From Bacilli bacterium (lineage in GTDB: Bacteria; Bacillota_I; Bacilli_A; RF39; UBA660): DNA of 64,000 nucleotides. A program made the position numbers and the translations under genes. Position 1 is the first letter of the stretch; every line of letters begins with the position of its first letter. Positions 677-64,000 of the stretch are shown piece by piece. The notes below the pieces were generated by a model that searched no databases, had not been told where the DNA came from, and was given only the letters and a program-made list of their open reading frames with translations. Location: assembly GCA_017410525.1 (NCBI GenBank), contig JAFQQQ010000002.1:205591-269590 (forward strand), given 5' to 3'.

Positions 677-1852
677 ATGAAAAAGATTTTAATGTGTTTT
701 ATTTGTTTATTTATGGTAATTCCTTTTGTTAATATGTATGCAGAAGAAGTTAAGGAAGAAAAAAGTAATGTGTTAGCTAAAAACGCTAAAAGTGCTATTT
801 TACTTGAAGAAAGTACAGGTGAAATACTTTATGAGTTTAATTCTCATGAGAAATTAGAGCCTGCAAGTATGACTAAGATGATGAGTTTATTACTTATAAT
901 GGAAGCTATAGAAAAAGATGTAATAAAGTGGGATCAAATCATAACAGTATCATCTAATGCTTCTGGTATGGGTGGAAGTCAAATACTTCTTGAAACTGGT
1001 GAAAAGATGAGTGTTGATGACTTAGTTAAAGGTGTTGCTATTGCTTCGGGTAATGATGCAGTAGTTGCTTTAGCGGAAGCAATTGCTGGAACAGAAGAAA
1101 ACTTTGTAAAAATGATGAATGATAAATTAGTTGAATTAGGACTTAAAGATAGTAATTTTAAAAATTGTCATGGATTAGATGAGGAAGGCCACTATTCAAG
1201 TGCTTATGATATGGCCCATATTGCTCGTGAACTTGTTAAACATGAAAAGATATTAGAATATTCTAGTATATATGAAACATATTTAAGGGAGGGTACAGAT
1301 AAAAAAATATGGTTAGTTAATACTAATAAATTAGTTAGATTTAAAAGCGGTGTAGATGGACTTAAAACTGGTTATACAGAAGGAGCAGGATTTTGTTTAA
1401 CTGCTACAATGAAACAAAATGATATGAGAGTTATCGCTACAGTAATGGGGGAACCTGATAGTCAGACAAGAAACAATGAAGTATCTTCTATGCTTGATTA
1501 TGCTTTTGCTCAAGTAGGAATAAAAAAGGTATTGTCAAAAAGTAGTGTGGTTGAAAAAATAAGTTTATCAAAATCTAAATTAGATGAAATAGAAATTGTT
1601 CCTGTTAAAGATGTTACAGTTTTATACAAAAAGGTAGAAGGAGAAATAACTCCTACATATGAAATAAAATTAGATGAAGTTAGTGTTCCTATAAAAAAAG
1701 GTGATGTAGTAGGAACTTTATATGTTATGAATAATGATGAAGTAATAAATGAAATAGATTTAACTGTTAAAGAAGATGTGGAAAAGTGTAATTTATTTGA
1801 ATTATACTGGAAATATTTAAAAAATATAATAGGTGGTAATATTAAGTTTTAA
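677..1852 (+). CDS. Serine-type D-Ala-D-Ala carboxypeptidase (peptidase S11, low-MW PBP)
   Basis: Signal peptide; SxxK (ASMTKMM), SGN (IASGNDA) and KTG (LKTGYT) motifs; RBS AGAGGTG upstream. Confidence 0.9.
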   Translation: MKKILMCFICLFMVIPFVNMYAEEVKEEKSNVLAKNAKSAILLEESTGEILYEFNSHEKLEPASMTKMMSLLLIMEAIEKDVIKWDQIITVSSNASGMGGSQILLETGEKMSVDDLVKGVAIASGNDAVVALAEAIAGTEENFVKMMNDKLVELGLKDSNFKNCHGLDEEGHYSSAYDMAHIARELVKHEKILEYSSIYETYLREGTDKKIWLVNTNKLVRFKSGVDGLKTGYTEGAGFCLTATMKQNDMRVIATVMGEPDSQTRNNEVSSMLDYAFAQVGIKKVLSKSSVVEKISLSKSKLDEIEIVPVKDVTVLYKKVEGEITPTYEIKLDEVSVPIKKGDVVGTLYVMNNDEVINEIDLTVKEDVEKCNLFELYWKYLKNIIGGNIKF

Positions 1853-1942
1853 GAGATGAGAATCTCTTTTAATTTTAAATGGCGAAATATTTACTTTTTT
1901 TTATATGAGTGATATAATCTTTATAAGAATAAGGAGGTATGT

Positions 1943-3559
1943 ATGAGAGAAGTATATATATTTGGACATAAAAAGCCTGATACAGATTCAGTAACTTCAG
2001 CTATAGCCTTATCTTATTTGAAAAATCAGATAGGTATTAAATCTAAACCTGTGGTATTAGGAGATATAAATAAAGAGACTCATTTTGTGTTAAAATATTT
2101 TAATATAGAAAAACCAGAATACTTAGAAGATGTTAAACTACAAATAAAAGATTTAAATTATTATAAAGATTGTTACGTAAGTAAGTTTGACTCGATTAGA
2201 AAAACATATGACTATATGGGAAGCAAAAATATTACGGGTGTTCCTATTGTAGATAATGAAAAAAAGTTTATAGGTCTTCTAACTTCTAAAATGATTGGTT
2301 CCGAATTAATAAATGGTAATTTTACTAAATTAAATACATCCTATGATAATATTTTGGATGTGCTTAAAGGGGAAGAAATTCTAAGATTTGATGACGAAAT
2401 AAGTGGTAATATATTAGCTGCTTCTTTTAGAAGTACAACTATTTTAAATACAGTAGAATTTAGAAAAGATACAATAATGATTATAGGAGATAGGCATAGC
2501 GTTATAGAAGCTGCGGTTAATAGTTATATAAAATTGTTAGTAATAGTAGGTAATTTAGAAATAAAAGAAGAACACTTATCTATTGCTAGACAAAATAAGG
2601 TAAATATTATAAGAACTCATTTTGATACATTTCATACAGCTAAATTGATAGGTTTATCTAATTATGTAGATAATTTACTTACTGATACTAGAACTATTAG
2701 TTTTAACGAAAATGATTACTATGATGATTTTAAAGATAAAAGTGTAAAATTAGGGCACAATAACTATCCAGTAATAGATGATAGTGGAATATGTTTAGGA
2801 CTTATAAGAATTACTGATATTAAAAATATGAATAGAAAACAAGTAATACTTGTAGATCATAATGAGGCTGTTCAAAGTATTGATGGGCTTGATGAAGCAG
2901 AAATATTAGAAATAATAGATCACCACAATATTAGTTCATTAACAACTAAGATGCCAATCAATTTTAGAAATATGACAGTAGGTAGTACTAATACAATTAT
3001 TTATTCGATATTTAATGAAAGTAATATAAATATTCCAAGTGACATTGCTGGTATTATGTTAAGTGGTATTATTTCTGATACATTAAAGTTTACTAGCCCA
3101 ACAACTACTGAATATGATAAATATGTAGCTTATAGACTTGCAGATATTGCTCAAATTAACATAGATGTATATTCTAATAAAATGTTTAAAGCGGGAACTG
3201 ATTTAAAGGGAAAAACAATTCAAGAAATTATTCAAGGGGATATGAAAATATATGAATCTAATAATGAAAGAATTGCTATATCACAAGTAATAACTTTAAA
3301 TTCAGAAGATATATTAGAAAAACGAGAAGAATATATTAAGAAAATAAATGAGATGAAAGAAAATAGAGGTTACGATATAATGGTAGTATGTGTAACTGAT
3401 ATAATTAAGGACGGTTCATATATATTCTTTGATGAATCAAGTAAAAGTGAGATCGCTAACGCGTTTGGATTTGAAGAAATAGAACAAGGTTATTTTTTCT
3501 CAAAATGTTTATCTAGAAAAAAACAATTAGCGCCCCTAATTATGAGTGTAGTAAAATAG
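1943..3559 (+). CDS. CBS-domain-containing family II (DHH/DHHA2) inorganic pyrophosphatase
   Basis: GHKKPDTDSV at the N-terminus, DHNE and DHH motifs, a long CBS-like insertion, and a C-terminal DHHA2-like region. 538 aa fits the CBS-PPase subfamily. Confidence 0.8.
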   Translation: MREVYIFGHKKPDTDSVTSAIALSYLKNQIGIKSKPVVLGDINKETHFVLKYFNIEKPEYLEDVKLQIKDLNYYKDCYVSKFDSIRKTYDYMGSKNITGVPIVDNEKKFIGLLTSKMIGSELINGNFTKLNTSYDNILDVLKGEEILRFDDEISGNILAASFRSTTILNTVEFRKDTIMIIGDRHSVIEAAVNSYIKLLVIVGNLEIKEEHLSIARQNKVNIIRTHFDTFHTAKLIGLSNYVDNLLTDTRTISFNENDYYDDFKDKSVKLGHNNYPVIDDSGICLGLIRITDIKNMNRKQVILVDHNEAVQSIDGLDEAEILEIIDHHNISSLTTKMPINFRNMTVGSTNTIIYSIFNESNINIPSDIAGIMLSGIISDTLKFTSPTTTEYDKYVAYRLADIAQINIDVYSNKMFKAGTDLKGKTIQEIIQGDMKIYESNNERIAISQVITLNSEDILEKREEYIKKINEMKENRGYDIMVVCVTDIIKDGSYIFFDESSKSEIANAFGFEEIEQGYFFSKCLSRKKQLAPLIMSVVK

Positions 3560-55806: not shown

Positions 55807-55839
55807 GCTTTGTGCGACAAGAATTTGGAGGTATTAAAA

Positions 55840-56301
55840 ATGCGATTATTGTACACTAAACCAGAATTAAAAGATTTATCCCAAGGATCAAGAATAGCGT
55901 TTGTCAGACAATTTAGATTGATGACACAAGATGAAGTATCGGATAAATTAGGATTAACAGGTGAATGTAAAAGAAGAACAATGACAAGATATGAGAAGGG
56001 AGAAAGAAATCCAAAAGATGATAGAACTTATGAATTATCTAAAATATTAAAAGTTAATTACAATGCAATAAAAAAATATGATTTCAAAGATCAATCAGAT
56101 ATACTTTATACTTTAATGTGGTTAGAAGAGTTGCTTCCTCGTTACCAAATAGATTTATCGAGAATACCAAGCATTAATGATGATAATATCATTAAATTTA
56201 AAGAATTCATCAATGAATGGGAAGAAATGAGGACAAAAAGATTTAAAAGAGAAATTTCTTACGAGCAATATGTTGAATGGAAGTTAAATTTAGAGGTGTA
56301 G
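55840..56301 (+). CDS. XRE-type HTH domain protein
   Basis: IAFVRQFRLMTQDEVSDKLGL...MTRYEKGERNP. ATG at 55840 preferred (GGAGGT RBS). Confidence 0.65.
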   Translation: MRLLYTKPELKDLSQGSRIAFVRQFRLMTQDEVSDKLGLTGECKRRTMTRYEKGERNPKDDRTYELSKILKVNYNAIKKYDFKDQSDILYTLMWLEELLPRYQIDLSRIPSINDDNIIKFKEFINEWEEMRTKRFKREISYEQYVEWKLNLEV

Positions 56302-56305
56302 TAGT

Positions 56306-57166
56306 ATGTTAGAAAAAATAGATTTGTTAAAAATTGATGGTTTTAAAAATCATCCTTATAAAGTTAATGATGATGAATCTTTAAAAGAACTTGCAAGTAG
56401 TATTAAAGAAAATGGATTGCTGAATCCTTTAATAGTAAGATTAAAGTCAAATGGTAGATATGAACTAATATCAGGACATAGAAGAAAAAAAGCAATGGAG
56501 TCAATAGGAATATCAGAAGCGGAAGTATATGTAAAAAAATTGTCTGACGAAGAAGCTACGATAGAAATGGTTGATTCTAATATGTACAGAGAAAAAGTTT
56601 TACCATCAGAAAAAGCGTTTGCATATAAAATGAAATTAGAAGCATTAAAGCATCAAGGTAAATCTTTGTCCCCTAAGGGAACTAAATCTCATACGGTAGA
56701 TGAAATAGATGATACAAAAACTCAAATTTATAGATATGTAAGATTGACTTATTTAATCCCAGAATTATTACAATTAGTTGATGATACTGTTTTAAAGGAC
56801 AAAAGAGCAGTTTTAACGATGGGTTTAAAACCAGCGGTAGAATTATCATATTTAACAAAAGAAGAGCAAAAATTGGTATATATGGGGATTACATACGAGG
56901 ATTTAACTCCAAGTCATGCTCAAACAATAGAAATAAGAAAATTAAGTAAATCAAAAAAATTGGATTTTAATAGTTTAGAAGATATTTTATGTCAAAAAAA
57001 AGGAAATCAAAACGATCAAATATCATTTAATAAAGATAAAATAGAATCGGTTTTACCAACAGAATTATTGAAAAGAGATAAAAGATATATTGAACGATAT
57101 ATAATAAAAGCAATTATAGAGTATAAAAAAATGAAAATTGTTGAAGAAGATGAATTGGATTTTTAA
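56306..57166 (+). CDS. ParB/Srx-fold N-terminal domain protein (ParB-like nuclease family)
   Basis: NPLIVRLKSNGRYELISGHRRKKAM (ParB box GxRR) followed by a helical C-terminus. Confidence 0.75.
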   Translation: MLEKIDLLKIDGFKNHPYKVNDDESLKELASSIKENGLLNPLIVRLKSNGRYELISGHRRKKAMESIGISEAEVYVKKLSDEEATIEMVDSNMYREKVLPSEKAFAYKMKLEALKHQGKSLSPKGTKSHTVDEIDDTKTQIYRYVRLTYLIPELLQLVDDTVLKDKRAVLTMGLKPAVELSYLTKEEQKLVYMGITYEDLTPSHAQTIEIRKLSKSKKLDFNSLEDILCQKKGNQNDQISFNKDKIESVLPTELLKRDKRYIERYIIKAIIEYKKMKIVEEDELDF

Positions 57167-57190
57167 ATAAAGTAAAGAAAGGGTGATAAT

Positions 57191-58015
57191 ATGGTTTTTA
57201 AGGTGGAAAAAAATAAGAATTATACAGTAATGAGTAATTACCATTTGAGAGATAAAAACTTATCTTTGAAAGCAAAAGGCTTATTATCATTTATGCTTAG
57301 TTTACCAGATGATTGGGATTACTCATTAAATGGTTTATGTTCTATATGTAAAGAATCTGAAGGAGCAATAAAAAGTACATTAAAAGAGTTAAAAGATAAT
57401 GGATATTTGGTTATAGAAAAAGTACGAGGGGAAAAGGGATATTTTGAATATAACTATATTATTTATGAACATCCATATACATTAGAAAAGGAGAAAAACA
57501 ATCCAGAGGGTAAAAATCCACCTGTGGATTATCCAATGGTGGAAAATCATACCCAAATAAATACTAATGAACAAAGTATTAAAGAACAAATAGATAGAAT
57601 AGATAAAACCATAAATGAAGATGAGGAAAAAATTTCTTCATCTTTTTCTTTAGAAGAACATCACGCTATAACTAAAGATTTAGTTGAAAGAGAATATTTA
57701 GCAGAAGATGATGTAGAACTATACAAGTATGATAAATTTTTTAAGGAAATTTTAAAAAAACAAAAATTTACTGATGTAATTTCTATAACTCACTATATTA
57801 TTTCTAGTGTTAAAAGTCGGCATTTTATAGATGAGTTTGATAATAAGATAGAGAATAAATTTGGATATTTAAAAACATCAATTGAAAATAATATTGAAAT
57901 GTTTAAAAGACGTGAAATAGAATGGGATGATGAATTAGGATGGTTTAGGGAAGTGGATAACGATGATAAAGAATTAGATTCTTTTTATGACGATTTTGAT
58001 TATGAAATAACATAA
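57191..58015 (+). CDS. Replication-initiator-like winged-helix protein (HTH_36/RepA_N-like N-terminus)
   Basis: YTVMSNYHLRDKNLSLKAKGLLSFMLSLPDDWDYSLNGL...LKELKDNGYLVIEKVR matches the pattern common in element-borne Rep/DnaD-like proteins. The family name is from memory. Confidence 0.6.
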   Translation: MVFKVEKNKNYTVMSNYHLRDKNLSLKAKGLLSFMLSLPDDWDYSLNGLCSICKESEGAIKSTLKELKDNGYLVIEKVRGEKGYFEYNYIIYEHPYTLEKEKNNPEGKNPPVDYPMVENHTQINTNEQSIKEQIDRIDKTINEDEEKISSSFSLEEHHAITKDLVEREYLAEDDVELYKYDKFFKEILKKQKFTDVISITHYIISSVKSRHFIDEFDNKIENKFGYLKTSIENNIEMFKRREIEWDDELGWFREVDNDDKELDSFYDDFDYEIT

Positions 58016-58046: not shown

Positions 58047-58445
58047 TTACTTCTCAATCAATTTTTCGGCAAAACTATGTAGCATTTCAAGGTTTATATC
58101 GCTTAAATTTTTTGCGATTTCAAATATGCTATATAAATTTGAATTTTTTCTGATAATGATGGCATCAACATTTTTTAAGTCATCTTCAGAAAATGTACTT
58201 CCAGTCTGGTTAAATATAGCTTCTTTTAATTGAAAAGAATCTCTAAAACCTAAACCTTTACTAATTTTTTTTAATGTTATACTGCTTATGTTACCGCTAT
58301 GCTTTTTAGACTCTAAATCATTAATTACCATTCTTGAAATTTCGCATTTATCTGCAAATTCTCTAGCACTCATCGTTGGATGAAATGATTTACGATAATT
58401 ATTAATGTAAGAGCCAAGTGCATCTACAAATGCTTTGTCTTCCAT
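58047..58445 (-). CDS. XRE-family HTH regulator (divergent from the downstream + strand genes)
   Basis: MSAREFADKCEISRMVINDLESKK HTH. A minus-strand gene facing a 436-bp divergent control region. Confidence 0.65.
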   Translation of the reverse strand: MEDKAFVDALGSYINNYRKSFHPTMSAREFADKCEISRMVINDLESKKHSGNISSITLKKISKGLGFRDSFQLKEAIFNQTGSTFSEDDLKNVDAIIIRKNSNLYSIFEIAKNLSDINLEMLHSFAEKLIEK

Positions 58446-58687
58446 ATCCTATCGCCTTTCTTTTGTTCTTTTACTACATTACCATTTTACACTTTTTTTG
58501 AATTTTTGTCCACATAACGCTATGAAATTCATTTTTAAAAAATTAAATTATGAAAATGGACATTTTTAATATTATTTGTTATGATAATAATGTAGTAAAT
58601 AGTCTTTAAAAAAATATGGGAGGATAGAAATGTTTAAATCAAAACTTGTGATGCTTTCATTTCTGACCAAAGAAAGGAGGAGCAAGA

Positions 58688-58855
58688 TTGCAAGAGCAAG
58701 AAGGTTCTAATGTTGTTAAAAGCATCAAGATTGAAGTGATAAGTGGGGAAAAAAAAGGTGTAAACTTATTAACGCAGTTTAGTGAGGTAGAAACAATTAG
58801 AATATTAAAGCAGTGTCTTATATCGTTAGAAAGGGAGGCATCACAAAACCAGTAG
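58688..58855 (+). CDS. Possible small ORF (55 aa, TTG start)
   Basis: My translation is MQEQEGSNVVKSIKIEVISGEKKGVNLLTQFSEVETIRILKQCLISLEREASQNQ, with RBS AAAGGAGGAGCAAGA. A competing 26-codon ATG ORF (58630-58710, RBS GGGAGGA) overlaps it. Confidence 0.35.
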   Translation: MQEQEGSNVVKSIKIEVISGEKKGVNLLTQFSEVETIRILKQCLISLEREASQNQ

Positions 58856-58881
58856 TACCGATTAAGGAAGGAAAATGATAT

Positions 58882-59193
58882 ATGACTAAAGAAAGTAATG
58901 AAGTAGTATCAGAAGTAAATGCAGTAATTAGTAGTATTAGAAGTAAGGTTCAACAAGAAGAAAAAATTACAGTAGATGAAATTGATAATTTATCTACTAC
59001 TGTTAATCAACTAATCACTGATTATAGAACAGTATTAAATGACTATCTTGTAATGAACTCTTTAGCAGTAAAACATGATAAGTTTTTAGAAGTAATTGGT
59101 ATTATAGAATTTGCTTCTGCAAATGATGTTAGAATTTTAGATCAAACAATTAAATCCTTAGAAAAGGTTGTTAAAACAATAAAGCAGAGGTAA
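58882..59193 (+). CDS. Hypothetical helical protein
   Basis: 103-aa ORF with RBS AAGGAAGGAA. Terminator ACTGTGTGGA/TCTACACAGT plus T-run at about 59203-59238. Confidence 0.55.
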   Translation: MTKESNEVVSEVNAVISSIRSKVQQEEKITVDEIDNLSTTVNQLITDYRTVLNDYLVMNSLAVKHDKFLEVIGIIEFASANDVRILDQTIKSLEKVVKTIKQR

Positions 59194-59282
59194 ATAAAAT
59201 ATACTGTGTGGAAAAAAATTCTACACAGTTTTATTTTTGGATATTGACATTTATAAAAAAATAATGTATCCTTTTATTGTAA

Positions 59283-59302
59283 GTGGCAGTTCAAACTGAC
59301 AC
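59283..59302. repeat. Palindrome-containing site, left member of an inverted pair
   Basis: GTGGCAGTTCAAACTGACAC matches the reverse complement of 59520-59539 at 18 of 20 positions. It is embedded in a 10-bp outer inverted repeat, CTTTTATTGT (59271-59280) / ACAATAAAAG (59301-59310). Confidence 0.75.
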
Positions 59303-59519
59303 AATAAAAGAAGGAGGGGATTGAAAAATTTGTAATAGGAGAGAGGTATAGAGTTTTTAATGAAGTATCCGAAAATCATGGAAACTATCTCACAATTATC
59401 AACATAAATAAAGACTTAATATATTATTTATTTGATGGTAGCGATCAGGTTCAATGTTTTTCAAGTAGTAGTGAATTTGCAGTTGACCTTATTAAGTTGG
59501 TCTAATTTTTTTAAAATAA

Positions 59520-59539
59520 CTGTCAGTTTGAACTGACAC
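59520..59539. repeat. Palindrome-containing site, right member, just upstream of the 59553 ORF RBS
   Basis: CTGTCAGTTTGAACTGACAC. The core GTCAGTTTGAACTGAC is a perfect 16-bp palindrome. Confidence 0.75.
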
Positions 59540-59552
59540 GAAAGGAACTACG

Positions 59553-59813
59553 ATGAAAAAAATTAAGAAAGAAAGATCAGTACCAAAATGGGTTTTACGA
59601 AATCTACGATTGTATGGGAATTGTTGTTGTGGATACGATTTAATAAAAAAATATGGTGAAAAGAAATTATTAGAAAAATTAGTTAAATTTGGATTTGAAT
59701 GTAGTTTAAGAGTTGTACCAGATCCAGATGCAAGAACAAGAAGAAAAATGAAATATCCACCATCAGCTTACTATATTTTAGAAGTTGATAAGGTACTGAT
59801 TACTAACAAATAA
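59553..59813 (+). CDS. Hypothetical 86-aa protein in the antitoxin position upstream of MazF
   Basis: MKKIKKERSVPKWVLRNLRLYGNCCCGYDLIKKYGEKKLLEKLVKFGFECSLRVVPDPDARTRRKMKY... Its stop TAA (59811-59813) abuts the MazF TTG start. I can see no AbrB/RHH/MazE-like pattern. Confidence 0.55.
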   Translation: MKKIKKERSVPKWVLRNLRLYGNCCCGYDLIKKYGEKKLLEKLVKFGFECSLRVVPDPDARTRRKMKYPPSAYYILEVDKVLITNK

Positions 59814-60194
59814 TTGTTTTTATCAGTAAAGAAAGGTGAAGTTTATTTAATCGATTTGAAGGATACATATTCAAATGTCCAATGTGGGAAAAGACCTTGT
59901 TTAGTCATTCAAAACGATTATGGTAATGAATATTCACCGACAACAATAGTAGTTCCCATTACAACAAAAATTAAGAAGACTTATATGCCTGTTCATGTAG
60001 TTATTGAAAAGGGAAGTTATTCTAATAAGGATCGAGAAATGGTTTTATGTGAATGTATCTTAACAGTATCAAAAGATCAAATAATTAATCATTTAAGAAC
60101 TTTTGATGAAGATACGATGCAGAAAATTGATAAGGCTTTAGAAGTATCATTAGGAATTGGCGTGAAAGGGAGGAATCAAAAATTAAAAAGTTAA
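59814..60194 (+). CDS. mazF: MazF/PemK-family endoribonuclease toxin
   Basis: KKGEVYLIDLKDTYSNVQCGKRPCLVIQNDYGNEYSPTTIVVPITT matches the PemK signature. The TTG start is translationally coupled to the upstream ORF. Confidence 0.8.
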   Translation: MFLSVKKGEVYLIDLKDTYSNVQCGKRPCLVIQNDYGNEYSPTTIVVPITTKIKKTYMPVHVVIEKGSYSNKDREMVLCECILTVSKDQIINHLRTFDEDTMQKIDKALEVSLGIGVKGRNQKLKS

Positions 60195-60265
60195 AAGAGA
60201 CGTATAATGATATTTTTAGTAAAGGTATTGAAAATTATTGGAAGTCTGAAGGTTGTAATAGTAGG

Positions 60266-60832
60266 ATGCAAAAATACTTTAAATTTGCAAACTTACTAGA
60301 TAGTATTAATGTAGTTTTAAAATATATAATGATTATTTGTCTTAATATTATTGCAACAATGACAATTTTTAAACTATCTTCAGGAATTTATTTGACAGAA
60401 ATGGTTAAAGAAACAACAACTTTAACTGTAATGGATATTATTTTTCAACAAGGAGGCTTTATAGTTATTGGTTGTTTATATTTTGTTTTAGGGTTAAGAT
60501 ACGGAAAACGAAATAAAGACAGTTTTGGTAAGATAATGTATAAAGTTTTATATGGTATGCCAATGTATTATTTAATATATCTAAATATGTGTTTGATGGA
60601 TGGTTTAACAGGAATAATGATATTCTTAATTCTTTATTTAATTATTGTTAATATAAACTTTTTAATAAGTAAAAGAATAAAAGAGTTATATAATGTTGCA
60701 ACAGGTAATATTGGAACAGAAGAATATGAAAAAGAATTAGAAGAAGTAGATGTAGTATTTACAAAACAAGAAGTTGAAAATAAGGATAATAAAAAAGGAA
60801 GAGGAGATAAAAAATATGCAAGGAAGCGTTAA
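60266..60832 (+). CDS. Hypothetical membrane protein (about 4 TM) with a charged C-terminal tail
   Basis: Hydrophobic segments [42 protein letters not shown] and [18 protein letters not shown]. No family recognised. Confidence 0.5.
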
Positions 60833-61037
60833 ATGGTTTAGTGATAAATTAGGATATGGATTTATTGTTTGTGAAGATTTAGATGAGGAAGTATTTGTTC
60901 ATTTTAGCGAAATACAAATGGATGGATATAAGTCTTTAAAAGAAGGAGATATTGTAAGTTTTGATTATGACACAGAAGTTGGAAAAGCTAAAAATGTCAA
61001 TGTTATCAAAAATGAAAAGTTAGAAACTTCTAAGTAG
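60816..61037 (+). CDS. csp: Cold-shock protein (CspA family)
   Basis: [50 protein letters not shown] (RNP1-like KGYGFI, RNP2-like VFVHF). ATG at 60816 preferred (GGAAGAGGAG RBS). Confidence 0.85.
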
Positions 61038-61507
61038 TGAATTTTATTGGTGCAGTAGTGCATTATTCCGTTGACTGTGTAGATGAATCTAAAACAGCAG
61101 AAAACGGAAGAGAAATTTGTAGTCAGTATAGACCACTTGTAGAAAAAAGAATTAAAAGATTATTAGCAACACCAATGAACTCTGCAAGTATTGTACTTTT
61201 TACATCTGGAAATAGAAGTAAAAATTCTTTTGAAGAAAAACTAATACAAAGAGTTGCTTGGAATGATGATCAGATAACTAATTTTATGAATAACATTTTG
61301 TTATTAGAACAATATGATAAAATGGCAGGTTTATATTTGAAACTTAAATATATTTATGATAAAACTGATAAACAAATTGCAAAAAAAATGAAAGTAACAG
61401 ATAGAACTTTAAGAACTTATAAAACAAGGGCGTATTTTCAAATTGCAGTGTGGTCTAATAAAGTTGAATATATTTATAACAAAACTTTTCATTTTAATAT
61501 TGATTGA
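61037..61507 (+). CDS. Sigma-70 region-4-like HTH protein (element-type sigma/regulator)
   Basis: C-terminus KTDKQIAKKMKVTDRTLRTYKTRAYFQIA resembles a sigma region 4.2 HTH. GTG start abuts the csp stop. Confidence 0.5.
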   Translation: MNFIGAVVHYSVDCVDESKTAENGREICSQYRPLVEKRIKRLLATPMNSASIVLFTSGNRSKNSFEEKLIQRVAWNDDQITNFMNNILLLEQYDKMAGLYLKLKYIYDKTDKQIAKKMKVTDRTLRTYKTRAYFQIAVWSNKVEYIYNKTFHFNID

Positions 61508-62747: not shown

Positions 62748-62769
62748 ATTATGTGGAATTCCACATAAT
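62748..62769. repeat. Perfect 22-bp palindrome ATTATGTGGAATTCCACATAAT
   Basis: Read directly and self-complementary over 62748-62769. Half-site TTATGTGGAA recurs at 62792-62806 and, inverted, at 62844-62858. Confidence 0.85.
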
Positions 62770-62791
62770 ATTTTTTATGTAGAACTTTTAG

Positions 62792-62858
62792 TTATGTGGA
62801 ACTTTTATAAAAAACATCTTGTAATTAAGGCGTTTCTATTATAAAAAGTTCCACATAA
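62792..62858. repeat. 15-bp perfect inverted repeat pair TTATGTGGAACTTTT / AAAAGTTCCACATAA, 37 bp apart, abutting the recombinase gene 3' end
   Basis: 62792-62806 and 62844-62858 are exact reverse complements. Confidence 0.85.
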
Positions 62859-62865
62859 TTTTTTT

Positions 62866-63867
62866 CTATTTCATATTATTTTTCAACCAACTATCTAAAT
62901 TGTCTTTTTTAGTATTACTATATTTACTTTTAGTGTTTATCGTTTCTGAATTTCTAAGAATTTCTTGTCTTTGCTTTTTCGAATCTGGAGTTGCATATAT
63001 CTCTGTTGATGTTATTGAACTATGACCTAGAAATTCTTTAACATATAAAAGCGGAGTTCCATTATTATACAAATGTGTTGCTTTGGTATGTCTAAAACTA
63101 TGAGGATGATAATTTCCATTGAATTTATCTGGATATATTAAATTTAATTTTAAAACTATTTTTTTAATCATTTTATTAATACTATATCTTGAATATTTTT
63201 TCTTATAATTAGAATAAAATAAATAATCATCTCCATAGTTAATATAAAATTCTTTTAAATATTTATTGATTAACTTTACTAATTCTTGACTGATAGGTAC
63301 AATTCTAGTTTTATTACCTTTGCCATATAAAGTAATACTTGCATTATCAGATAAATTTAAGTCATCTAATTTAATATTTATTAATTCAGTTACTCTTGCC
63401 CCTGTTTCATAAAGTACACATATCATCGTTAATTTTTTTAAATCTTTGATACTGTTTAAATAATTTATCATTGTTTTTATTTCATTTTCTGTAAAATATG
63501 ATATCATTTTATTAGGAACCTTTTTATTCTTAATACTAAGAATTTGAGAACAAGATCCAAATAAATCAGGTTCGTTTATTTGGACATACTTGTAAAATGA
63601 TTTTATACAAGCAAGTCTTTGGTTCCTAGTTTGTATTGAAACAGTTCTATCTGTTTCTAACCAATCTAGAAATTGGATTATTACTTCCTTAGTAATTGAT
63701 TCAATTTCTATTTTATTTGGTTTAATATTTTTTTCTTTATTCATAAATTCTAACAACAAATAAAATGTAGTTGAATATGATGATTTAGTGTTCATTGAAT
63801 AATTACATTCACCAATTAAATAACTTGTAAGAAATTCTTGAACTAATTTACTAAATCTATTAGTCAC
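62866..63867 (-). CDS. Tyrosine site-specific recombinase (XerC/D / phage-integrase family)
   Basis: SAM-like N-terminal domain. ETGARVTEL (catalytic Arg context), HSFRHTKATHL (HxxR), LGHSSITSTEIYA (catalytic Tyr). GTG start. Confidence 0.85.
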   Translation of the reverse strand: MTNRFSKLVQEFLTSYLIGECNYSMNTKSSYSTTFYLLLEFMNKEKNIKPNKIEIESITKEVIIQFLDWLETDRTVSIQTRNQRLACIKSFYKYVQINEPDLFGSCSQILSIKNKKVPNKMISYFTENEIKTMINYLNSIKDLKKLTMICVLYETGARVTELINIKLDDLNLSDNASITLYGKGNKTRIVPISQELVKLINKYLKEFYINYGDDYLFYSNYKKKYSRYSINKMIKKIVLKLNLIYPDKFNGNYHPHSFRHTKATHLYNNGTPLLYVKEFLGHSSITSTEIYATPDSKKQRQEILRNSETINTKSKYSNTKKDNLDSWLKNNMK

Positions 63868-64000
63868 CTAAATCACCCCCTCATATAAACTTTTAGAAAA
63901 AGTATCATTAGCATCGATAATTTTATTTTTATTATAATCAGTAAAATGAAGATAGTATTCTGTTTCATGAATACTTTTATGTCCCATATATTTATAAAGA
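63868..64000 (-). CDS. C-terminal end of a second tyrosine recombinase (5' part beyond the window)
   Basis: My reverse-complement translation is ...LYKYMGHKSIHETEYYLHFTDYNKNKIIDANDTFSKSLYEGVI*. It shows the LGH...T..YxH catalytic-Tyr motif. The TAG stop (63868-63870) abuts the GTG of the downstream recombinase. Confidence 0.7.
   Translation of the reverse strand, partial: LYKYMGHKSIHETEYYLHFTDYNKNKIIDANDTFSKSLYEGVI

Follow-up and report, generated by a model that had tools for sequence, protein, structure and literature searches.

The question raised by this locus is whether a pair of imperfect 20-nt repeats upstream of a MazF-family toxin gene marks an invertible genetic switch or a pair of binding sites for a regulatory protein. 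The repeats, hereafter O1 and O2, lie in a 64,000-nt stretch of a Bacilli bacterium contig (JAFQQQ010000002.1; hereafter the window), where they enclose a 217-bp segment with a hidden gene, X, and are followed by a second small gene, Y, and the toxin gene. The initial annotation placed the sites upstream of a MazF module, which is correct since the PemK/MazF gene at 59814-60194 follows Y, and it offered both interpretations. Comparison with related loci favors the second one: it is rather probable that O1 and O2 are same-direction operator copies for the dimeric XRE-type repressor of a mobile element, through which the X-Y-MazF operon would be controlled. Binding as such, the binder's identity, the transcription start and the choice between looping and a roadblock are what we infer here. 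The features on which the argument depends are as follows.

58047-58445, minus strand: XRE-family (HTH_3) protein of 132 aa, putative repressor (Pfam HTH_3, E=1.9e-5; weak PHROG repressor hits)
59244-59272, plus strand: predicted sigma-70-type promoter of the X-Y-MazF operon, TTGACA-17-TATCCT, matching the consensus at 10 of 12 positions
59283-59302, no strand: O1, putative operator with its 18-bp palindrome core at 59284-59301 (TGGCAGTTCAAACTGACA); position relative to the promoter fixed in all lineages, sequence class-dependent
59320-59505, plus strand: gene X, encoding a 61-aa acidic, predicted all-beta protein; ATT start, 16 alleles, no indels, ratio of nonsynonymous to synonymous divergence (dN/dS) 0.1-0.35
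59520-59539, no strand: O2, putative operator with its 18-bp palindrome core at 59521-59538 (TGTCAGTTTGAACTGACA), 2 nt 5' of the ribosome-binding site of Y
59553-59813, plus strand: gene Y; product of 86 aa, strongly basic with a net charge of about +13, from an uncharacterised family and, given its position, presumed to be the MazF antitoxin
59814-60194, plus strand: MazF/PemK-family endoribonuclease toxin (Pfam PemK_toxin PF02452, E=5e-26, full-length; PDB EndoA/YdcE/MazF, E about 1e-24)

Two palindromic sites that vary together

Both sites were re-read from the window at the positions first given for them, O1 (GTGGCAGTTCAAACTGACAC) at 59283-59302 and O2 (CTGTCAGTTTGAACTGACAC) at 59520-59539, with an O1-O2 distance of 237 bp. 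The reported score was reproduced exactly: 18 of 20 positions match in the inverted (reverse-complement) alignment, compared to 16 of 20 in the direct one. Each site is itself self-complementary at 16 of 20 positions, and the palindrome noted in each of them is confirmed as one of 18 bp (TGTCAGTT-NN-AACTGACA). A repeat search of the window listed the pair twice, once as a 19-nt inverted pair with 95% complementarity and once as a 31-nt direct repeat with 77% identity. Allowing up to 3 mismatches, the 18-mer TGTCAGTTNNAACTGACA has O1 and O2 as its sole matches in the window, where 0.29 are expected by chance, and at least two matches occurred in 4 of 100 shuffles. Taken alone, this window-only statistic is only mildly significant.

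Much stronger evidence comes from about 50 related loci, originating from ruminant and human gut metagenomes and from metagenome-assembled genomes of 'Bacilli bacterium'. They were recovered by a genome-collection scan with the Y alignment, by exact-protein look-ups and with an orientation-neutral DNA probe from inside the segment, and their 20-mers were aligned with the dyad axis at the centre. L001-L005 stem from goat and deer rectum samples (RGIG). At least eight sequence classes can be told apart across lineages (A, A', B, C, C', D, E and F), with G added for a larger clade, and the two copies of a genome are of one class. Mean O1-O2 identity is 17.5/20 within a genome and 11.5/20 between classes; of 40,320 re-pairings, no more than 2 gave a total as high as the real one, so that the co-variation of both copies makes the pair certain. 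All classes share the core GTC-N10-GAC, and the inner positions 6,7 and 15,14 vary symmetrically and in parallel at both sites (AG/CT, TA/TA, CA/TG, CC/GG), whereby the dyad symmetry is preserved. The sites are also constrained: between the window and locus L014, synonymous divergence (dS) in X is about 1.3, yet the half-arms are alike save for one base in the window O1 (TGGCAGTT versus TGTCAGTT). Sequence-specific recognition of duplex DNA by a symmetric dimer would be the best fit to these data. In one human gut locus (L037, positions 469-486 and 704-721) the two operators differ from each other at the inner positions (AGTCTAGTATACTGGACT versus AGTCCAATATAATGGACT); these sites may be an intermediate of classes C and D.

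The location of the sites is likewise fixed. Promoters and transcription starts are consensus predictions throughout, and in the window the scan gave a -35 hexamer TTGACA at 59244-59249 and a -10 hexamer TATCCT at 59267-59272 with a 17-nt spacer. The TTGACA after which O1 had been said to lie is thus present, one position to the left of the 59245-59250 reported for it. The promoter blocks TTGAC and TGTATYCTTT-WATTGTA are nearly invariant across 16 lineages, and the near-invariant block TTGAC...TGTATYCTTTWATTGTA adjoins the start of O1 in all of them. O1 begins 11 nt past the conserved -10 hexamer and spans the predicted transcription start, while O2 always stands directly 5' of the ribosome-binding site of Y in the lineages aligned, clade G being different. 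The centre-to-centre spacing of the sites is 233-240 bp across relatives and 125 bp in clade G, and with such variable spacing any looping would not be helically phased. The 10-bp outer inverted repeat described around O1 does exist in the window at 9 of 10 positions (CCTTTTATTG at 59270-79, CAATAAAAGA at 59302-11), although it is not concentric with O1 and is not conserved in relatives. A promoter internal to the segment, before O2, was rejected, the sole candidates (TTGACC-23 nt-TAAAAT and TTATTA-17-TAAAAT) both being unconserved.

Direct copies and a single orientation

Recombination by a tyrosine recombinase could take two forms at such sites, an invertible phase switch or, since the copies are direct, excision of X as a cassette. 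The anatomy of the sites, with inverted arms of 7-9 bp around a short variable centre, bears a superficial likeness to recombinase core sites, and in the window alone the centres CA (O1) and TG (O2) give the two an inverted relative orientation. Two tyrosine recombinase genes are encoded 3 kb away, and the switches of Clostridioides difficile are segments of 150-200 bp between imperfect inverted repeats (PMC7446863). Still, the relatives leave this reading with hardly any probability. In every one of them the direct identity between O1 and O2 equals or exceeds the inverted identity, and the asymmetric variants reveal the orientation of the copies. The class B site GTGGCAATTCAAAAGACCAC is identical at both positions, scoring 20/20 direct versus 12/20 inverted; over the 18-bp palindrome the respective values are 18/18 versus 12/18 in class B, 16/18 versus 12/18 in class D and 17/18 versus 15/18 in class A'. 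The class D (AGTCCAAAATAATGGACT) and class A' (TGTCAGTT..AAATGACA) variants likewise read in the same direction at both sites. The higher inverted score of the window results from the central dinucleotide alone, CA in O1 and TG in O2. This dinucleotide drifts freely among relatives (CA, CG, TG, AC, AG, AT), and because the CA, CG and TG forms all occur, the window TG is derivable from CA by two single-base changes. Judged by these variants, the repeats are direct copies of a palindrome and the inverted reading is an artefact of palindromy, which was the caveat that the initial annotation itself had attached to its proposal.

The population data point the same way. None of the roughly 50 loci, which come from independent samples, is inverted or lacks X; the segment has its native orientation, co-oriented with the operon, in all the assemblies L001-L037 and L041-L050. 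The chimeric junction expected from an inversion event had no match in 241 million metagenome records, and the 8 loci found with the orientation-neutral probe were all native. The segment itself is a gene that runs with the operon and is kept by purifying selection. Clade G has its two sites 5' of X and no copy between X and Y, hence flanking of X is not essential. As for the recombinases, they are indeed encoded 3 kb away, but outside the conserved module: homology to related elements ends at 62748, before these genes, and no relative has a homologue, a recombinase acting in trans being still conceivable. An excision product, with a single site and no X, was not found among the loci recovered via Y alone. 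Direct copies, a single orientation, the absent junction, an unconserved recombinase and the site placement in clade G together lead to rejection of both inversion and excision, and the phase-variable element that had been suggested is accordingly not upheld.

The XRE protein as the candidate binder

The best candidate for the binder of both O1 and O2 is the XRE protein encoded at 58047-58445, to judge from the way sites and protein diverge together. Orthologues of it were seen in all lineages whose flanking sequence is long enough. The palindrome GTTTACTAGTRTAAAC has four matches in clade G, compared to 0.05 expected; two of them belong to the X leader, the other two to the divergent promoters that separate the XRE gene from the rightward genes. 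In classes A, A' (L014, L015, L016), B (L008, L024), C (L009) and D (L013, L030), half-sites of the respective lineage overlap -35 boxes next to the XRE gene (TGGCAGTT / TGTCAGTT, TGGCAATT, AGTACAAT and AGTACAAA for classes A, A', B, C and D). The recognition helix of the XRE protein changes along with the operator class: SR.VI.DLE in A/A', SKTAVANLE in B, GRSTLFRIK in C, GRSTIFYIA in D and SK(A/S)(T/S)(L/I)SKIM in G. There are five helix-sequence types for six operator classes, the type of A being also that of A', a relation that is correlative and confounded by linkage.

A mosaic locus, L030, helps to separate the repressor from the operon's own products. Its X, Y and MazF are 87, 89 and 93% identical to those of the class C locus L009, in comparison with 76, 85 and 88% to the class D locus L013. 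Its XRE protein, by contrast, is 78% identical to that of class D (L013) versus 48% to that of class C (L009), and both of its operators are of class D, with O2 lying in a D-like island within C-like or equidistant sequence. This suggests that the operator class tracks the XRE recognition helix and not X, Y or MazF. Together with the dyad symmetry, the co-variation, the position of O1 at the promoter and the motif at XRE promoters in relatives, it supports the other half of the initial proposal, namely paired operators for a dimeric repressor.

Three further proteins were discarded as binders. The ParB-like protein (56306-57166), in a KorB/parS-style arrangement, and the 163-aa helix-turn-helix (HTH) protein are both confined to the window clade, while the paired sites are found in all lineages; the 55-aa protein, a conceivable Cro-like binder, is missing in classes C and D.

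The following course of events would be expected from the geometry. Repressor bound to O1, over the predicted transcription start, would block initiation of X-Y-MazF, and the block would probably extend to the downstream genes for a membrane protein, a cold-shock protein, an ArpU-like regulator and a CAP-domain protein. O2 might act as an auxiliary operator raising the local occupancy of the repressor through looping. Alternatively or additionally, it might be a roadblock between X and Y that keeps Y-MazF lower than X.

Several observations weigh against assigning the sites to the XRE protein. In the window, L006 and L007, the O1/O2 motif is absent from the promoter region of the XRE gene even at up to 4 mismatches, so the autoregulation link is missing in exactly this clade. 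The XRE proteins of the window and L014 are only about 52% identical, though both loci belong to operator class A. The XRE gene and O1 are about 840 bp apart, hence the co-variation could partly reflect linkage and not function, and the O2 island of L030 stands out only slightly (0.93 versus 0.85 identity in 60-nt windows). The operon promoter and its transcription start are consensus predictions only, the spacing of the sites offers no conserved helical phasing in support of looping, and the binding of XRE to O1 and O2 is itself predicted.

Autoregulation and RNA structure as alternatives

The main rival to operators for the XRE protein is toxin-antitoxin autoregulation, with O1 and O2 bound by the operon's own protein, either Y alone or Y with MazF, and less likely X. 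Textbook MazF operons indeed have palindromes that overlap the promoter, and two palindromic regions are used by Kis-Kid (PMC3879964). O2 lies directly before Y, the motif is restricted to the X-Y-MazF operon in the window clade, Y is very basic and its predicted topology (given below) was counted in its favour as well, and a Y-PemK module without X (L040) also has two repeated 24-nt sites 5' of Y. Against this, the operator class in L030 does not follow Y, X or MazF, its Y, in a class D locus, being closer to that of class C as given above, and in most lineages the motif is found at the promoters of the XRE gene. Elsewhere, a Y-like domain is fused to Rha or HTH_3 DNA-binding domains. X is an even poorer candidate, being acidic (net charge about -4) and the most conserved protein across operator classes. 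Overall, autoregulation seems unlikely, although it keeps an appreciable share of the probability.

Less probable by a good margin of likelihood is an element acting at the RNA level, where the transcribed palindromes would form hairpins, as stabilisers of the 5' end and of a processing site or as a site for an RNA-binding protein, and control the stability or translation of X and Y-MazF. With transcription starting about 7-9 nt past TATCCT, O1 would become a 5'-terminal mRNA hairpin, only 2 nt separate O2 from the ribosome-binding site of Y, and pairing is kept by compensatory changes in most classes, with hairpins of -5 to -10 kcal/mol. The exceptions are difficult to accommodate, however: the class B site GTGGCAATTCAAAAGACCAC pairs at 12/20 only (-2.3 kcal/mol), and class A' has a mid-stem G.A mismatch at both sites. 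Folding was no better than that of shuffled sequence (z = -1.4), Rfam gave sub-threshold noise only, and a plain hairpin does not need the sequence shared by the two copies. Furthermore, copies at the divergent promoters overlap -35 boxes, and such boxes are signals in DNA. A long-range O1:O2 RNA pairing as a target of RNase III was also considered and fails, because the class B sites are non-complementary.

Genes X and Y and the toxin

The open frame at 59308-59505 that had been noted as lacking a canonical start proved to be real, with neither ATG, GTG nor TTG at its beginning, and the pattern of substitution indicates that X is a genuine gene under purifying selection. Among 16 distinct alleles of its 165-nt core, pairwise dN/dS is mostly 0.1-0.35, even where dS exceeds 1. 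Translation would depend on the following signal.

59311-59319, plus strand: strong Shine-Dalgarno (SD) sequence AAGGAGGGG, directly 5' of the X start; GGAGG kept in all lineages, 1-2 nt from the start codon position

Directly past GGAGG, the window and most relatives have the codon ATT, replaced by ATC in L005, by ATA in classes C and D and by ATG in L016-19; in L020-23, the ATT precedes a TTG. In clade G, the start is a GTG at the equivalent short-spacing position directly past the SD, about one codon off the window ATT in the protein alignment. The ATT start (ATC or ATA in relatives) is the reason why X was overlooked by open reading frame (ORF) and gene callers. A profile search assembled 59 members of the family, mostly of 60 aa with canonical starts. 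X had no match in Pfam, PHROG, NCBIfam or PDB, including a profile search of PDB sequences, and its AlphaFold2 (AF2) model is weak (predicted local distance difference test, pLDDT, 58). A GTG inside O1 was rejected as the start of X: relative to X, its frame is not constant across lineages, and in the window a TAA at 59305-07 interrupts the frame.

Some details of this start region deserve a record. In all lineages, also where X starts with ATG or GTG, the distance from SD to start is unusually short, and GGAGGNGAT resembles an extended anti-SD complement reaching into the X start codon. In L014 (3540-3570) and L015 (1665-1690), a 1-nt length change in the A-run just past the X start position takes ATA/ATT out of the frame used by the remainder of X, which in both is still under strong purifying selection, with dN/dS of about 0.1 (L014) and about 0.24 (L015) versus the window. 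This shift could be a sequencing error, transcriptional slippage or a different start. The 4-codon mini-ORF described behind the SD can be read in the window, from TTG at 59321 to TAA at 59335, but is not conserved; in L002, for example, its TTG is replaced by TTA. Leaders with a two-codon mini-ORF behind a strong SD are those of L045 (4846-4954, ATG CTT TAA), L049 (4848-4954, ATG ACA TAA) and L041 (1060-1085, ATG GAT TAG). In clade G it sits between the two operators. The two-codon mini-ORF in the clade G and L041 leaders may be a start-stop or leader-peptide element.

Y belongs to a family with 13 close and 59 distant members and is always directly 5' of the PemK toxin gene within the module; the TTG start of MazF abuts the Y stop codon. 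It is presumed to be the MazF antitoxin by this position. The AF2 model (pLDDT 79) has the topology a-b-a-a-b-loop-b. Y matched no Pfam domain and no significant structural or sequence homologue, including in a profile search of PDB sequences, an IMG/VR scan for its relatives returned none, and no recognisable DNA-binding domain of the AbrB, ribbon-helix-helix (RHH), HTH or Phd type is present. In loci without a PemK toxin, the Y-like domain forms the C-terminal part of proteins of 153-164 aa with an N-terminal Rha or HTH_3 DNA-binding domain (P0035, P0041, P0051; L038, L039), a fusion that suggests Y to be the partner-binding rather than the DNA-binding part. A stand-alone Y-like gene without MazF was seen in L042. 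The distant Y-PemK module of L040 carries its two 24-nt direct repeats at 2819-2908 (AAATGTTGCC-CTGTGG/CCACAG-TCTACAAAA), the central hexamers of which are mutually reverse-complementary.

A bolder and doubtful extension is that X, Y and MazF form a three-gene toxin module, with two uncharacterised families (X and Y), wired to the immunity switch of integrative elements of gut Bacilli. Were this true, the XRE repressor would hold the module off via two operators, and, these bracketing X in the window clade, de-repression or partial occupancy would set the ratio of X to Y-MazF. Translation of X would be kept very low by a near-cognate AUU/AUC/AUA start at 1-2 nt from a strong SD, and X might be a dosage-sensitive third component, such as an anti-repressor, a co-antitoxin or a trigger.

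Relation to known regulatory systems

Temperate phages control immunity through repressor operators, those of CI in lambda and 434 being the classical examples. The present locus resembles such immunity regions, and that of prophage CP-933P, in its several 18-bp dyad-symmetric sites and in the divergently transcribed HTH (XRE-type) gene, and, as in heteroimmunity, repressor and operators appear to diverge together between related elements. In CP-933P, the CI-like PaaR2 and the Cro-like YdaS bind to 18-bp palindromes, through which an embedded paaR2-paaA2-parE2 toxin-antitoxin locus and a second promoter are controlled (PMC8630535). Here, too, a toxin-antitoxin module seems to be wired into the regulatory circuit of the element, and by analogy the CP-933P immunity region would be the nearest precedent. 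In contrast to phage immunity operators, the motif is absent from the promoter region of the window clade's repressor, the second site lies inside the operon, between cistrons 1 and 2, and not beside the first, and the link between repressor and operator is drawn from co-variation.

The geometry also recalls the lac operon, where primary and auxiliary operators, O1 centred at +11 and O2 at +412, act with DNA looping. As in lac, one operator covers the (predicted) transcription start and a second of identical type follows a few hundred bp downstream in the transcribed region; unlike in lac, a tetrameric repressor and looping are not evidenced here, and the spacing lacks helical phasing.

Type II toxin-antitoxin operators, such as the 'alternating palindrome' of MazE, regions I and II of Kis-Kid and the 18-bp operator of MazE6 (PMC3879964, PMC9477884), share with the present locus the two palindromic sites at the promoter of a MazF-family operon. 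The difference is that Y falls into none of the four antitoxin classes reported with MazF, i.e., AbrB, CopG, DUF3018 and winged HTH (PMC3879964), that the operator class appears to follow XRE and not the operon's own proteins, and that an extra conserved gene, X, precedes the pair. The flagellar switch of C. difficile, a 154-bp segment inverted by RecV (PMC7446863), is similar in segment size, in its imperfect repeats of about 20 bp 5' of regulated genes and in its low-GC Firmicute host. It is unlike the present sites, which are direct palindrome copies with a conserved coding gene inside, one orientation in about 50 loci and no conserved recombinase.

A false inverton candidate is thereby removed, and the test is reusable: if each 'inverted repeat' is palindromic, asymmetric variants in relatives separate direct from inverted copies. 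From the comparison emerges the regulatory layout of a so far uncharacterised group of integrative elements in Bacilli of the ruminant and human gut (integrase - Rep - XRE - X - Y - MazF - CSD - ArpU - CAP). On the evidence of co-variation, the MazF module of these elements appears to be controlled by their master repressor and not by itself. It also provides two leads, a conserved 61-aa gene missed by gene callers (X) and an 86-aa basic family in the antitoxin position, in place of the known MazE-type antitoxins (Y). Current understanding is not overturned; this is ordinary operator biology in a gut-bacterial mobile element.

The surrounding element

Two further features complete the regulatory region.

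58484-58585, no strand: region of divergent promoters (consensus scan) that separates the XRE gene from the 55-aa/103-aa genes, with an architecture conserved in all lineages
59203-59229, plus strand: intrinsic-terminator-like hairpin, an 11-bp stem followed by a T-run, which ends the transcript of the upstream 103-aa gene; an equivalent hairpin is present in relatives

The order in the window is thus hairpin, promoter, O1, SD, the X frame up to 59505, O2, a second ribosome-binding site, Y and PemK/MazF. The module common to relatives consists of Rep(HTH_36), XRE (minus strand), small genes, the O1/X/O2 region, Y, PemK, the membrane protein, the cold-shock protein, the ArpU-like regulator and the CAP-domain protein. 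In clade G, an integrase lies at the left end of the element, adjoining secA. Nucleotide searches of phage and plasmid collections with 58400-60300 gave no match, and PADLOC found nothing.

The divergent region has a leftward predicted promoter beside XRE (TGGACA-17-TAAAAT, 58512-58484) and a rightward one toward the 55-aa/103-aa genes (TGGACA-17-TATGAT, 58557-58585). A perfect 12-nt inverted repeat (TTTACTACATTA / TAATGTAGTAAA) at 58470-58481 and 58588-58599 coincides with the predicted starts of the divergent XRE (leftward) and 55-aa gene (rightward) transcripts; it is kept in all operator classes and is therefore not the lineage-specific operator.

Other genes of the window element, in 55810-58015 and 61037-61507, encode the 163-aa second XRE-type protein, a ParB/Noc-like protein (TIGR00180, E=2e-24) without a ParA partner, a DnaD/Rep-like initiator and an ArpU-family late regulator; the 163-aa and ParB/Noc-like proteins are those confined to the window clade. 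Homology with the closest related elements (L002, L003, L006) stops just past the CAP gene. What follows (62749-64000) is a separate segment absent from all relatives, and it is there that both tyrosine recombinase genes lie (62866-63867 and 63868 onward, minus strand). In L014, an IS66-family transposase (1829-3403) is inserted between the 105-aa gene and the X-Y-MazF promoter, with the promoter and both operators intact.

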